This document shows positions 4,229 through 16,252 of a stretch of 64,000 nucleotides of DNA, piece after piece. The notes under the pieces were generated by a model. That model had not been told where the DNA came from. It was given only the letters and a program-made list of their open reading frames with translations, and ran no database searches. The stretch spans positions 434,001 to 498,000 of the forward strand of contig CP145420.1 in NCBI GenBank assembly GCA_036867785.1, in the 5' to 3' direction. The translations under genes were made by a program, and so were the position numbers. Numbering within the stretch: the first letter of the stretch is position 1; the number at the start of each line of letters is the position of its first letter. The stretch is from Plasmodiophora brassicae. Lineage: Eukaryota.

Positions 4229-9229
<5,001 letters not shown>

Positions 9230-9826: not shown

Positions 9827-11964
9827 ATGACGATCGACCACGGTGACGACGACCGTCACGAGGGCGGCGCCAGCAGCGACGACGACGGCGGTAGCGGCCC
9901 GGGCGACGCCATCAGGCGCAACGTCTTCGACGGGCTCTGGGACGACCTGTACGCGCAGGCGCTGTCGTGTACTGGGTGGCGCGCGAACCCCCGTCCTGAA
10001 CGATCCCGCACAGGGTCGCCGGCGCGAACGTTGGCGGGGCGGTCTATGACGAGTTCGCGCGCGCCCGCCCGACCGTCACCATGGGCGTCCTGGCCGAGAT
10101 GCTCGTCCAGTTCTTCGGTGCCGTCCCCGCCGTCCGTCGGATTCGTGGCCTGGTGCCTGGCAGGGCCCTGCAGGCCGTCCTGCGGCGGCACACCGACGCC
10201 AAGCTGGGCAGCATGTTCGGCGACGACGACGACGACGACGCAGGGCGATCCCGGCTGGTGTTCGCCAGGGACGCGTTCGTCGCCATGAGCGGCGACCTGT
10301 TCGCCGGCGCCGACCTGTACCCGAACGCGGCCGCCTGGGACATGGACGACACGCGCCTGCCTCTGCTACGCGACATCTCCCGAGTCGTACGATTCGACTC
10401 GCGCGCGCGCGCGCGCGCTCTAACCTGTGTGTGCTTGCTTCCTAGCTGGACACGCTGTCGTGCATACCGCTGGCGATCCATCGGACGTTGTCGCGGGGCG
10501 AGACGGCCGCCCACCTGCTGCGCAAGCCCAGCGAGCAGCGCCAGCACCACGAGCTCGTCTTCCTGAGCCGCATAGCGTCCCAGGCGCTCCAGCGCCTGGG
10601 CTGTGGGCCTGCGACGATGGACGTCGTCCGGTGCATGACGCTGCGGGTCGTCGAGCAGGACGACGCCGTCTGCCGGGAGGGCGACCTGGCCGAGGACTAC
10701 TTCGTCGTGTTCGACGGCGCCCTGATCGTCAAGCGGTCGACGATCTTCGGCATGCTCGGGTCGGTGTCGGAGTTCGTCGCCGGGTACGGGTTCGGCGAGC
10801 GCTCCCTGATGCTGGCAGGCGGCCGTCGCAACGCGACCGTGATCGGCCAGTGCCACACGGTCCTCGGCGTCCTGCACGCGCCCGACTTCAGGCGCCTGCT
10901 CTACCCGGTCGGTGCGCCTCTGCCACGACTGATCACCGTCCCCACCGCCCCCACCCCCTAACCGATGCCGCGCCCAGACGCTTCAGCGTGTCCTGAAGCG
11001 CAAGATCGACTTCTTCCGCCGCCTGCCGTACATGGCGCGGGTACCATACAACGAGGTCGCCGAGGTCGCCAACACCTCCTGGTTCCGTCGTTACCGCCCG
11101 CGGGACGTCATCCACCAGCAGGGCGACGCCATGCCCACCGACCTGTTCTTCGTCGCGTCCGGCCGCGTTCGTATCATTCGCGAAACGCCACCGGCGACGG
11201 CCCGTCGGCCATTGCAGGCGCCGTTGCGCTGCACGTCGTCCCGTTCGACGACCACGTCGCCGTCCACCGCCTCGTCCCGTCCGGGTTCGTCCCGGGTCGG
11301 GCACTTCAGCGGCGTCCAGGCCCCCATGCGGTACGCACGACCGAACACGGCCGCCGTCCAGCAAGGCGTGTTCTCCGTTCAGTCGCCGTACCGTCGGCGG
11401 CCCCGGTCGGCGCCGAATTACAAGCCGGGGACGACGACGAACACGAAGACGGTCGGTCAGATCCCGATCCCCTCGTTGGCAGTGACGAGGGTGCCCAGGC
11501 ACGGGGGTTCACCTGGATCGCCCGGCGCCCCAGTATTCATCGAGTGCTGCGTGCTCGGGTTCCCCTACGCCCTGGGTGACCTGCCCGAGGAGCGCCTGAC
11601 CAAGGTGCAACTCGTGTGGCACACGAGCACGGTGGCCATCGACCTCGTCGAGATGCTGGTCGTCCCGCACACCAGCCTGTTCAAGTACGCGTCGCTCGTC
11701 GTCCCGAACCTGTACCGGTGCCCGCCCGACCTCAAACTTCGTCGCGACCTGCAGGCCATCGCCGCATGGGACAAGTACAAGCAGGCGCTGATCGCATCGA
11801 GCGCCCCGATCACGCAACGAACCGGCTTCTACTTCTCCCATCACAACCGCCGGCTCACCGAACGCGCCGCACGCCCCGTCGCCCCACGAATCCGTTCGGG
11901 CGACCTCGTGCCGCGCCGGCGCGCCCTGCCCGATCCCGATTGGTTCAGATCATCGCGCGCCTGA
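9827..11964 (+). CDS. Cyclic nucleotide-binding domain protein (CNBD2-like, two cNMP domains)
   Basis: VCREGDLAEDYFVVFDG...FGERSL...RRNATV is a canonical phosphate-binding cassette. A second domain follows (VIHQQGD...LFFVASGRV) and a C-terminal P-x-D...WDKYK helix. Three short introns. Confidence 0.8.
10400..10418. repeat. (CG)n alternating tract inside an intron
   Basis: C(GC)9 read directly from the sequence. Confidence 0.9.
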
Positions 11965-12069
11965 GCCCATCGCCGCCCATCCACCGACAACGGATGACGC
12001 CTATGCCGCGATTCCCTGGTATGAACAATTAGTTTAAGGGGGTGCGGGTCTCCGCTCCGACACCGCCGG

Positions 12070-14834
12070 TCATCGTCGTGGAGGAGGAGGCGGCGGTGGA
12101 CGACCTCGCATAGGAGGCGGGCCTGGAGGTCCAGCCCGACCACGAGGTGGTGGCGGCGGCGGCGGCGGCATTCGACCTTGGGAAGGCCCGTCATCGTACT
12201 CGTAGGCGTCGTCGACTGGCATCCCGCGTCGAGGACCCGCAGGTGGGCGAGGCGGCGGAGGCGGCCCACCGGGCCGACCACGTGCAGGCGGTGGTGGAGC
12301 AGGACCTCGAGGCGACGCTCTCGATTCGAAACCGCCACCATCGACGTCATCGTCCGCAGCAGACGGTGGTTGACGAGGGGGCATGCGCGACGTTGCCGGG
12401 CCGCCGCGCGGTGGCGGTGGCATTCTACCTGCACGTGGAGGTGGTGGCGGGGGCATTCGACCACCAGCTCTGGGTGGCGCCGGCGCCGGACGTCCAGTAG
12501 GTCCATCATCGTCCGATGGCGTTGACTTGAGCGCCTTCGGCTTGAAGTTGCGAATCGACGCGAGAAGATCAGCACGGCCTCCTGTGGCAGGTGGCGGCGG
12601 CATCGACGCTTCCTCCGCGTTGTCGAACGACGGCGGTGGTGGCGGCGGTGGAGGAGCCGGGCTGGCACGAGCAGGTGGCCCACGCGGTGGCCCAGGAGGT
12701 GGAGGCGGTGGTGCACCACCACCCCTTGGGCTAGGCGTGCCGCGAGAGCGACCGCCCATTGGCTGCTGCTTCTGCTGCTGCTGCTGCCCATAAGCAGAAT
12801 TGCCATCGTCATCGTACGATGCCGCCATAGCTGGCGGACGAGGAGGGGGAGGAGCCGGTCGACCTGCGCGGGGGCCACCAGAAGGTGGGCCACGTGGGGG
12901 CGGCGGCGGCGGCGGCGCACCACCTCGTCTGGGAGGTGGGCCTCTGGGCGCCATTTGCGGTTCTTCGTCTTGGTACTGCGCGGGTGCAGGAGGCGGCGGC
13001 GGAGGACGACCACGAGGTGGACCACCGGCAGCAGGAGCACCACGAGGCATCGCAGCAGCGCGAGGCGGAATAAGAGGCATGCCGCGACCCGCCGGCATTC
13101 GCGAAGACGCATCACTTGCCAGCACCGGTGCCGACTTGTCGTCCGTGTCGCACTTGGCCAGATTGTTCTTCTTGAAGCTCGCGATCTGCTTCAGGAGGTC
13201 GGCGCGACCGCCAGATGCAGGCGGAGGCGTACTCTGTGGTGGAGGCGGTGGCGCTCGAGCCGCTGTTGGCGGTGGTGGTGCGCCCATTGGAGCACGAGGT
13301 GCTGCGGGTGGTGGACGAGGCGCCGCAGGCATACGAGAGGCCGATGGTGGCGCCGCTGGTGGAGGCGCGCGAGGTGCTACTGGCGGCGGCGGAGCAGGCG
13401 CTGCCATGCGAGGCCCTTGAGGAGGTGGAGGCATTCGTGGTGCAGGTGGCATCCGGGGTGCGGCCGGTGGTGGAGGCGCTTGCCTGTGTGCAGCAGCAGG
13501 TGGCGGTGGAGCAGCTGGCATACGTTGTTGCGGCGGTCCTGGAGGAGCAGGCATGCGAGGCTGGTGCTGCTGCTGCGGCGGTGCAGATGGCATCCGAGGA
13601 GCTGGTGGTGCGGGCGCACGCTGCTGCTGCATTGGTGGCTGGCCCATTGGCGGTGCCCCCATTGCCTGGCGAGATTGCGCCGGTGCCATTTGTTGCCCTC
13701 TGCCAGCCATTGGCTGCCCTGCAGGCTGTCTGCCTGGCACCTGCTGACCCGTGGGCATGCCCAGGATGCTCGGATCCTCGATGATCAGCTCACAGATGGC
13801 ATTGATAAGCTTCGGCGCAGTCAAGAGCAACATAGGGTCCGCACCAGACGGTGCTCCAGACAGCAACGACGGCCCAATTGCATAGGCGAGCTTCATCGTT
13901 GACATTTGCGTCACCTCCTGTACGACATCTGTCAGGTTGACCTTCGATACCCCACGAACAGTTCTACCTCGTTCTGAGACAGGGCGTTCAGCACGACAAA
14001 CAGCGTGTACAGAAATCCCCTCGTATCCGGGGCAAGCTGGTTCAGGACGCCGGCTAGTTGAGGTACATTGTCAGGCGTCATTTTCTGGGTGGACAGCAGC
14101 ATGTCCAGGATGTGAGGAGGCAGAATGGGCGATGGCAAATCCCGGATCGCCTGGCGCACACGTCAGGACGGGGGGCGCCGGCAACGACACGCGTTACCAC
14201 CAAACCTTCTTCAGGCTCTGCGCAATAGAGAGAATCGAGTAACGCTGGAAATCGATGGGGCGGTGCAGGTTGACGGCCGCGCTCATGGCCTCAACTTCGC
14301 CTTGCACCCCTGGATCCATGAAGATCATGGGAATGCCGAGGCCTGCAATCGCACCAGTCATGCGGTTGGTCCACAGGTCAACGCATCGGCGGGCTGTATA
14401 CCTCGTTTGGCAATCTCGATGACCATGAGTTCTGGTAGCTGAAGCGCTCCACCTTGCATGGGCTGTATTGTCAGCGAAGGAACGGCCACTTCCGGCGATA
14501 GCCAATATGAGATTGCAAGTCTAAGGGAATGCGTTATTAGACCTACATTGCGGTGGGGGCGGTTGTTGCTGCTGCTGATGCATCTGCTGTTGGCCATAGG
14601 GATCCTGGCCATTCGGGTCGTCGTACGGATAGAATTGCCATTGGCCTTGTTCATCATAATATCCCTGGCTGGGATCGCCGACCTGCCCGTCCTGATCATC
14701 GTAATACTGGTCCTGCTGCGCATTGGGATCGTAGTATCCCTGATCTGTTGCACCAGCCTCAGTCCGGTGCAGGGCATCATCGTACACCCACGACCCGCAC
14801 CGTATTGCTGCTGCTGGCTCCACTGGTACGCCAT
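12070..14834 (-). CDS. RhoGAP-fold domain plus proline-rich region with two WH2 motifs
   Basis: SIAQSLKK|AIRDLPSPIL and QMSTMKLAYAIGPSLL match RhoGAP helices. GGRADLLKQIASF-KKNNLAK and GGRADLLASIRNF-KPKALKST are WH2-like. Extensive polyproline tracts. Start inferred at MAYQWSQQQQY. Confidence 0.8.
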
Positions 14835-15264
14835 ACGGCCCTGCACCGACTGGCGCCCCGCAGGTCAGAGCACCGGCCCCACACAGGGGACGCTCGCGCG
14901 CGTCTCTCGTCAAACGCCGTCGGCAGGACACGACCGCCAGACGATCGTCGCGGGTCGTGACACAAAAACGGCAGGCGCCGGCGCGGTCGGAGCTGTCAGT
15001 GGCTTGTCGCGTCAGCCAACGGTCGACCCGCGAGAGGAGGACACAGCACACCGAATCGCCAGACAAAAACGTGACCCTGAATTTTTGCTCCAGCGCCCAG
15101 CGGTGTCAGTCGCAGCGACAGCATCGTCAGACAAAGGGGACGACGACGCCGTTTTTGTCCACGCCCGTTTGTGGGCGCGTTCGGCGACGTCTAAAAATAC
15201 AAACCTGGTCGGTGGCGTTCCCGAATGGTTGATGCCAACAGATGCAGAGAACGTCGTGTGCCAA

Positions 15265-16121
15265 CTATTTATTGACTCGGAACATCACGCCGACGAATAT
15301 GCCGTTCACCAGGCCCAGAACGTACACGAGAGCGAGAACCATCAGGGCTGTCGGATGAGATTTTCATCAGAGGAACGATGGTGCAGCGCGACGACAAGCG
15401 CCAGCTGCTTACGGGCTTCCGCAAGATACGCCTTTACAATGTCGGGAATGGCGTCAAGCTGATCAGAGCTCAGCTCCTTGGTTCTCTTTCGGGGAGTATT
15501 GCGATCGACCCGGCGTTGAACTCCTGGAGGGTTCTCATTGTTCGTGGTTTTCGAAGGGTCCACGAGGGCGTATTGCTTCATAATCCATGACATAATTTCC
15601 TCCTTGGTTCGAGGAGTTTCCTCTGTACGTATATAATCAATACAAGCGCACAACAAGCAATTCATCTAATGCAAACCTCCATACTGGACGCGAATACTCT
15701 TCTCTTCGCAGTAGCTAAACAGATAGATCTTATCAGATTACGACAACGGGTGGAAGCAACGTCTCAACAGTACAAGTATATGGTCGGGAAATACTCAATC
15801 GCTTCAAGCCTGGCAACGGTGGGATTGGTCGTAACGTCGACCTACAACTCATAAATCGCTTTGCAGAGATTGAGAGCGCACCACAACCTTGGCAATTCGG
15901 ATACCAGTTGACCCAGCCTGGACGTCACGACCGAGATCTTCGAGAATCGGCGCCAGCTTCTTGCAGTGGCCGCACCACGTTGCTGTAAAAGCAACGACCC
16001 ACACGTCACGTTTGATTTTCTCGTAGAAGTCTCCATCAGAGAGCAGTTCGACGCTGGAAGACGAAACGCTAACATGAAGCAACGCAGACACAGCCACGAT
16101 GCAGAGAACGCGCGCTGGCAT
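15265..16121 (-). CDS. Thioredoxin/PDI-family type I membrane protein (TMX-like)
   Basis: Signal peptide MPARVLCIVAVSALL, WCGHC active site, YFPT cis-Pro loop. The last exon, after a gtaagc donor, encodes TM helix LMVLALVYVLGLVNGIFVGVMF then RVNK-stop. Confidence 0.85.
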
Positions 16122-16252
16122 CGCTGAGCAATCTCTTGAAGATAGGTGAGCGACGGGCCCTTGACCCAATCACCTCGTTACACAGTACGCAGCGGGGCTG
16201 CTCTTCGTCGCGCGCAGATGGGTTAACCGCCTGCCGTCTGCGGGTGTATTCA

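Follow-up and report, generated by a model that had tools for sequence, protein, structure and literature searches.

The gene described here is found on the minus strand within a 64,000-nucleotide (nt) stretch of Plasmodiophora brassicae DNA (GenBank assembly GCA_036867785.1, contig CP145420.1, positions 434,001 to 498,000; hereafter the window, in whose coordinates all positions are given), in a GC-rich part of it (GC 0.67 in 12001-14000), and is an expressed open reading frame (ORF) of 828 amino acids (aa) in which a RhoGAP-like domain precedes a long tail that is rich in proline and bears two WH2 motifs (Table 1). The six exons join into a coding sequence of 2487 nt that is open throughout, and the five introns, of 56, 58, 59, 55 and 50 nt, all have GT..AG ends on the gene's strand (CT..AC on the plus strand). 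The stretch is present in 20 of 24 listed public runs, from nine studies; contigs were examined from four of these runs, belonging to four studies (X1, X4, X7 and X9), and in all four the five joints are identical and no sequence difference or indel relative to the window occurs. The intron at 14343-14401 falls exactly where an earlier reading of this DNA from its letters alone (the sequence-only reading) had proposed it. From 12015/12016 (X7 and X9) or lower (X1 and X4) up to 13916 the contigs of all four runs are colinear with the window and unspliced, so that the last exon is read uninterrupted through the final RhoGAP helices and on as far as the stop codon at 12072-12070, the tail and those helices sharing one exon and one frame. 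The true ends of the RNA are not provable from contigs, and the transcript extent in Table 1 is approximate.

The public gene model departs from this structure. A 60-residue segment encoded by the last exon finds, among 29 candidates, a single protein at 100% identity, namely P0001 (CEP03770.1 / SPQ99727.1, PBRA_003377), which is 377 aa long and bears the UniRef name 'Rho-GAP domain-containing protein'. Up to and including ...SILGMPT, P0001 is the same as the window protein save for one Gln indel and one Thr/Ala change, and it then continues in another frame. The deposited model excises the 49 nt at 13700-13748 as an intron, which shifts the frame, so that the tail is lost and the protein ends at 377 aa. 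The joint that such an intron would leave is found in none of the four transcript contigs; rare isoforms can be missed by contigs, so a minor short form may exist. The practical outcome is that the public model is cut off by a false intron and that 559 residues have been hidden by it. One NCBI name of P0001 is tagged '(mitochondrion)', although the gene has spliceosomal-type introns.

The sequence-only reading had assigned the folded part of the protein to the RhoGAP family, and this assignment holds: P0001 aligns with positions 8-145 of the 148 in the Pfam RhoGAP profile (PF00620), scoring 63.3 bits at E 2.9e-17 where the cut-off is 24.5, and a sequence search of the PDB returned 19 distinct chains at E <= 0.01, every one a RhoGAP domain. 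A single-sequence AlphaFold2 (AF2) model of P0001 was unusable (predicted local distance difference test score, pLDDT, 37.6) and was superseded by a model built with a 58-sequence alignment, in which pLDDT is 79-98 over residues ~91-270. Foldseek comparison of the PDB gave 72 matches at E <= 0.001, headed by RhoGAP/Rho transition-state complexes with template modelling (TM) scores to the target of 0.75-0.80; one of these, 1tx4_A, was matched at E 1e-7 with a TM score to the target of 0.77 and a root-mean-square deviation of 2.4 A over 173 columns. The predicted model thus has the all-helical RhoGAP fold, and by sequence match and modelled structure residues ~89-269 are a genuine but divergent RhoGAP domain.

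RhoGAPs use the arginine finger to stabilise the transition state, and without it catalysis falls by orders of magnitude. The spliced protein reads ...EIAKR|GLGIPMIFMDPG... around this position, and HMMER pairs its G-L-G-I-P-M-I-F-M-D-P-G with G-L-D-V-D-G-I-Y-R-V-S-G of ARHGAP15, which places Met115 on the catalytic Arg, as the sequence-only reading had suspected. Conservation was counted over 112 domain segments that cover the finger and the later helices, drawn from 99 of 149 non-self relatives (the other 50 have no such segment). The finger column holds R in 102 segments, K in four, M in two, and E, W, F and A in one each. Two residues before the finger, at position 113, Met stands where G is found in 103 of the 112, and three before it, at position 112, Pro stands where E is found in 78; in the N-K-M-x-x-x-N-L helix, position 222 is Lys here and N in 92. 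By contrast, the L-K-x-x-x-R-x-L-P-x-P helix retains both its Lys at position 151 (K in 103) and its Arg at position 155 (R in 93), a pair which we take to be the GTPase (Rho)-contact residues. Of the marks of a competent RhoGAP, then, the arginine finger and the conserved Asn are absent and the Lys/Arg pair is present. The finger codon lies eight codons inside exon 4, so the exact placing of the neighbouring junction cannot alter the finger residue. A splice form restoring Arg at the finger is rejected, the codon being internal to exon 4 and the contigs of all four runs agreeing.

The tail comprises 559 aa, close to the roughly 550 that the sequence-only reading had estimated, and is 34% Pro, with 18 runs of at least four Pro, 17 RxxPxxP, 10 PxxPx[RK] and 11 'RMP' motifs, and not one Trp. 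WH2 motifs bind G-actin, and polyproline binds profilin and SH3 domains. The two WH2 motifs called from sequence are both picked up by Pfam WH2 (PF02205), which scores 29.5 bits over the two stretches jointly; scanned alone, WH2-2 reaches 26.1 bits, above the 23.1 cut-off, and WH2-1 falls under it. As a control, the scan was repeated on four long ORFs read from the same DNA in other frames; no WH2 match appeared, and nothing had an E value below 0.2. No Pfam family was found in three proline-rich segments between and around the WH2 motifs, and Pfam scans of the protein returned RhoGAP and WH2 only, with WH1, CRIB/GBD, RPEL and other families not detected. The WH2 motifs are spaced ~180 residues apart, and both acidic patches noted earlier are present, lying ~55 and ~100 residues past WH2-2 with polyproline between. 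No amphipathic C-helix could be read in the sequence after either WH2; lacking both this helix and Trp, the tail is not a canonical WASP-type VCA module. The tail also repeats a unit of 'R-M-P-P-P' type 11 times and contains many R-G and P-R-G motifs. Its composition presumably resembles that of the proline/glycine/methionine-rich, arginine-methylated tails of some RNA-binding proteins.

At the other end of the protein, the N-terminal region has pLDDT mostly below 60 in the alignment-based model, and residues 1-100 of P0001 match no Pfam family. Residues 1-77 contain a three-fold 'QGYYD'-like repeat, and at residues 39-49 both AF2 models show a small hairpin, where pLDDT rises locally to 71-85. 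A secreted effector was considered and set aside, as the N-terminus (MAYQWSQQQQYDQGYYD...) shows no hydrophobic signal-like stretch on direct reading of the sequence, no predictor having been used.

Table 1. Features of the gene, in window coordinates.
Feature	Position	Strand	Basis or detail
Coding region	12070..14834	-	ATG 14834-14832, stop TGA 12072-12070; 828 aa
Six exons	14834-14801, 14744-14547, 14488-14402, 14342-14206, 14150-13968, 13917-12070	-	joints in transcript contigs
Five introns	14745-14800, 14489-14546, 14343-14401, 14151-14205, 13918-13967	-	contigs of 4/4 runs
Transcript contig extent, approximate	12015..15075	-	3' end ~12015/12016 in X7, X9; 5' reach 15036-15075
N-terminal Gln/Tyr/Asp-rich low-complexity region, residues 1-77	14548..14834	-	sequence reading; intron 1 interrupts the region
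RhoGAP-like domain, residues ~89-269, exons 3-6	13750..14456	-	Pfam, AF2, Foldseek
Met115 (Met116 in P0001), arginine-finger position	14317..14319	-	ARHGAP15 alignment; 112-segment column counts
Lys151 and Arg155 of the SLKK|AIRDLPSP helix, spanning intron 4	14142..14211	-	columns K 103/112, R 93/112
Lys222 at the conserved Asn position	13891..13893	-	column N in 92/112
Stretch of 49 nt with GT..AG ends that the deposited 377-aa model treats as intron	13700..13748	-	P0001 against window frame
Proline-rich tail, residues 270-828	12073..13749	-	composition counts
WH2 motif 1, residues 447-475	13132..13218	-	Pfam WH2 17.0 bits, E 0.0047
WH2 motif 2, residues 657-681	12514..12588	-	Pfam WH2 26.1 bits, E 6.6e-6
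Acidic patch 1 with Phe, residues 734-743	12328..12357	-	sequence
Acidic patch 2 with Tyr, residues 781-790	12187..12216	-	sequence

The protein appears to stand apart from its relatives. A HMMER search of 1.84 billion representative sequences returned 155 proteins at E <= 0.001, only the query itself at E <= 1e-30, and no orthologue; the best non-self match scored 81.6 bits at 22% identity. A homologue search with the 615-aa product of the last exon recovered P0001 only, among 8000 scored candidates swamped by polyproline words, and an ESM Atlas search gave no usable match. When the 29 top relatives were scanned with Pfam at E <= 0.001, RhoGAP was found in all 29 and WH2 in none, other actin modules being present in P0028 (RPEL and RhoGAP) and P0026 (RhoGAP, SH3 and villin headpiece). 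A permissive WH2 pattern occurred in six of 150 listed proteins (149 relatives and P0001), of which P0015 alone is WH2-like, below the cut-off. This 708-aa protist transcript product of the MMETSP collection, 29% identical to the query, likewise unites a RhoGAP domain with a WH2-like motif in one chain; however, its WH2 scores 13.8 bits against the 23.1 cut-off, its RhoGAP is canonical at 149.9 bits and is preceded by weak matches to WW, DEP and PH, and, as P0015 is not among the ten of 112 segments without the finger Arg, it keeps the finger. No published RhoGAP-WH2 fusion, and no work on this locus, was found in a full-text literature search in which papers on RhoGAP and WH2 were judged by title and abstract. 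On their own, both finger-less GAP folds and WH2/polyproline scaffolds are familiar. The fusion of a RhoGAP-like domain to a WH2/polyproline tail, with its single sub-threshold case among the 150 listed proteins, is a combination not seen among the nearest relatives and built from known components. One further RhoGAP protein, P0039 (335 aa), with proline-rich flanks, shows Lys in the finger column. In its last conserved helix it comes unusually close to the studied protein, and it may be the closest approach to a relative that this protein has.

Comparison with known systems places the two halves of the protein in different company. Finger-less RhoGAP-like domains are known from OCRL1 and from others, such as INPP5B, and the studied protein would share with these a RhoGAP fold devoid of catalytic activity, to judge from its sequence. 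A review (PMC4278560) describes the OCRL1 domain as catalytically inactive, as binding Rac1 and Cdc42 and also F&H-motif adaptors, and as possibly helping to localise OCRL1 to sites of actin assembly. OCRL1 differs in having PH, 5-phosphatase and ASH domains, none of which was detected here, where the partner of the fold is instead a WH2/polyproline tail. The tail itself is reminiscent of WIP/verprolin and Ena/VASP as these are generally described, with WH2-type G-actin motifs set in long, proline-rich, disordered sequence that carries many motifs of profilin and SH3 type; however, no WH1/EVH1 or tetramerisation domain was detected, nor a WASP-binding region, which has no profile to scan with, and the folded domain is RhoGAP-like. 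WIP/verprolin runs from N-terminal WH2 motifs through a proline-rich core to a WASP-binding region at the C-terminus, whereas here the WH2 and the proline-rich core come in another order and behind the RhoGAP-like domain, and no homologue of the tail was found. With WASP, N-WASP and WAVE, as commonly drawn, the protein has in common the succession of a putative GTPase-sensing module, polyproline, WH2 and acidic residues, yet it has no CRIB or WH1, no C-helix and no Trp in its acidic patches, and its polyproline lies both before and after the WH2 motifs. Neither mark of a class I nucleation-promoting factor was found, that is, neither a V-C-A module nor an N-terminus of WH1, CRIB/GBD or SCAR-homology type. 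The protein is closer in character to WIP/verprolin or Ena/VASP than to an activator of Arp2/3, and the WASP part of the suggested WASP/WIP-like factor finds no support. RhoGAPs of the RPEL family (ArhGAP12, for which a structure with bound G-actin exists, PDB 6gvc) and ARHGAP17/RICH1 likewise combine a RhoGAP fold with a G-actin motif (RPEL) or a long, proline-rich, SH3-binding tail in one chain, and the ARHGAP17 tail is reported to target the protein and to bind CIP4 (PMC9794838). However, these are active GAPs with RPEL and not WH2, and their BAR, PH, SH3 or WW domains are absent here; the studied protein has no RPEL match in Pfam and no finger. ARHGAP15, the actin-linked GAP with which the finger was aligned, has the Arg, unlike the studied protein.

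Taken together, these data allow a model to be proposed, which we favour tentatively and at somewhat short of an even chance, in which the protein is a cytosolic, lineage-restricted actin scaffold of P. brassicae whose dead GAP fold docks, probably on a Rho GTPase, and whose tail is a WIP/VASP-like scaffold for G-actin, profilin and SH3 domains, the binding being what we infer from its motifs. The model proposes that the GAP-like domain no longer speeds GTP hydrolysis and serves for docking instead, its target most likely being a GTP-bound Rho-family GTPase, or possibly another ligand. Such docking would place the protein at sites of active Rho signalling, where the WH2 motifs of the tail may gather G-actin while the polyproline runs and RxxPxxP motifs may gather profilin-actin and SH3-domain partners. 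Docking and gathering together would allow filament growth to be fed or tethered, as by WIP/verprolin or Ena/VASP; Arp2/3 activation of the WASP VCA type would not be expected. An inactive GAP fold serving as a GTPase-binding module is plausible by analogy with OCRL1, and possible partners are available, as P. brassicae is reported to encode Rho GTPases, Dbl and DOCK proteins in high copy number (PMC5499878).

Several points weigh against this scaffold model. None of the listed runs is recorded as RNA (the 'RNA?' label is a guess), and the RNA origin of the contigs is taken from their spliced form. Because the AF2 model was built from an alignment of RhoGAP homologues, it does not support the homology call independently; scanned alone, WH2-1 stays at 17.0 bits, under the 23.1 cut-off; no orthologue was found, so conservation cannot back function; and the function of the protein, binding and enzymatic alike, is deduced from sequence. 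The GAP-like domain is divergent, at 63 bits against ~77-160 bits for the single-domain matches of its relatives, so that Rho binding may have been lost as well, and inactive RhoGAP-like domains bind non-GTPase ligands too, as OCRL1 does F&H motifs (PMC4278560). These last points lead to an unlikely though credible alternative, in which the protein is a WIP/verprolin-like scaffold whose GAP-like fold no longer touches Rho GTPases and serves as a generic protein-protein or autoinhibitory module for some other ligand, much as the OCRL1 domain accepts F&H-motif adaptors. The low score of the domain (63.3 bits), the mere 22% identity of its best non-self relative and the alteration of at least four conserved positions in the active-site region (E-G to P-M, R to M, N to K) would all suit such a module; however, the fold is predicted at high confidence by AF2, and the Lys/Arg pair, which presumably contacts Rho, is retained. 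We also consider it rather unlikely that the protein represents a new class of Rho effector, in which the dead RhoGAP fold replaces CRIB/GBD as the sensor of GTP-Rho and directly gates a WH2/polyproline actin-assembly engine, whether by recruiting it or by releasing an intramolecular lock. It would then be a rhizarian analogue of WASP, formin or VASP that arose independently and helps to drive the amoeboid and plasmodial stages of this clubroot parasite.

Residual enzymatic activity provides a further scenario, and one that we hold to be unlikely: the domain could be a working or weak RhoGAP that the tail regulates or localises, as in ARHGAP17/RICH1 or the RPEL-family RhoGAPs, with G-actin bound to the WH2 motifs tuning GAP activity. 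RhoGAPs with G-actin or F-actin modules do exist (ArhGAP12 in PDB 6gvc, and the relatives P0028 and P0026), and the targeting tail of ARHGAP17 with its CIP4 binding (PMC9794838) offers a precedent; however, a Met at the finger cannot supply the guanidinium group, the conserved Asn is lost too, and the actin-linked ARHGAP15 keeps its Arg. It is less probable still that the protein is a new nucleation-promoting factor, in which the WH2 pair and the acidic aromatic patches, with Phe and Tyr in place of Trp, would be controlled by Rho and either activate Arp2/3 or themselves nucleate actin. Although two WH2 motifs are indeed followed downstream by two aromatic-containing acidic patches, the tail has no Trp and no visible amphipathic C-helix after either WH2, the patches are separated from WH2-2 by polyproline, at ~55 and ~100 residues, and the ~180 residues between the WH2 motifs are unlike the arrangement of tandem-WH2 nucleators as we understand it. 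It is very improbable that the long tail is not made and that the gene really yields the 377-aa protein of the deposited model or some short isoform. The deposited annotation does excise 13700-13748 with GT..AG ends, and rare variants may be dropped by contigs; however, the contigs of all four runs are unspliced there, the alternative frame is compositionally odd and matches no family, and the in-frame tail has Pfam-significant WH2 motifs.

If the GAP-like domain does bind GTP-Rho, the protein would be a compact example of a pseudoenzyme turned GTPase sensor and wired directly to actin assembly. To our knowledge, almost no cytoskeletal biochemistry exists for Rhizaria.

The surroundings of the gene were also noted. 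A convergent neighbour at 10446-11964 (plus strand) has two matches to cyclic-nucleotide-binding domains, one above the cut-off (31.7 bits) and one below it (24.4 bits); its 3' end lies ~50-100 nt from that of the studied gene, and the X1 contig crosses between the two genes. Upstream of the studied gene and on the same strand is a thioredoxin-domain ORF (15852-16169, minus strand, 45.6 bits) with a WCGHC motif, and a fragment of an ABC-transporter ATP-binding domain (66.1 bits) occurs at 8292-8918 on the plus strand.

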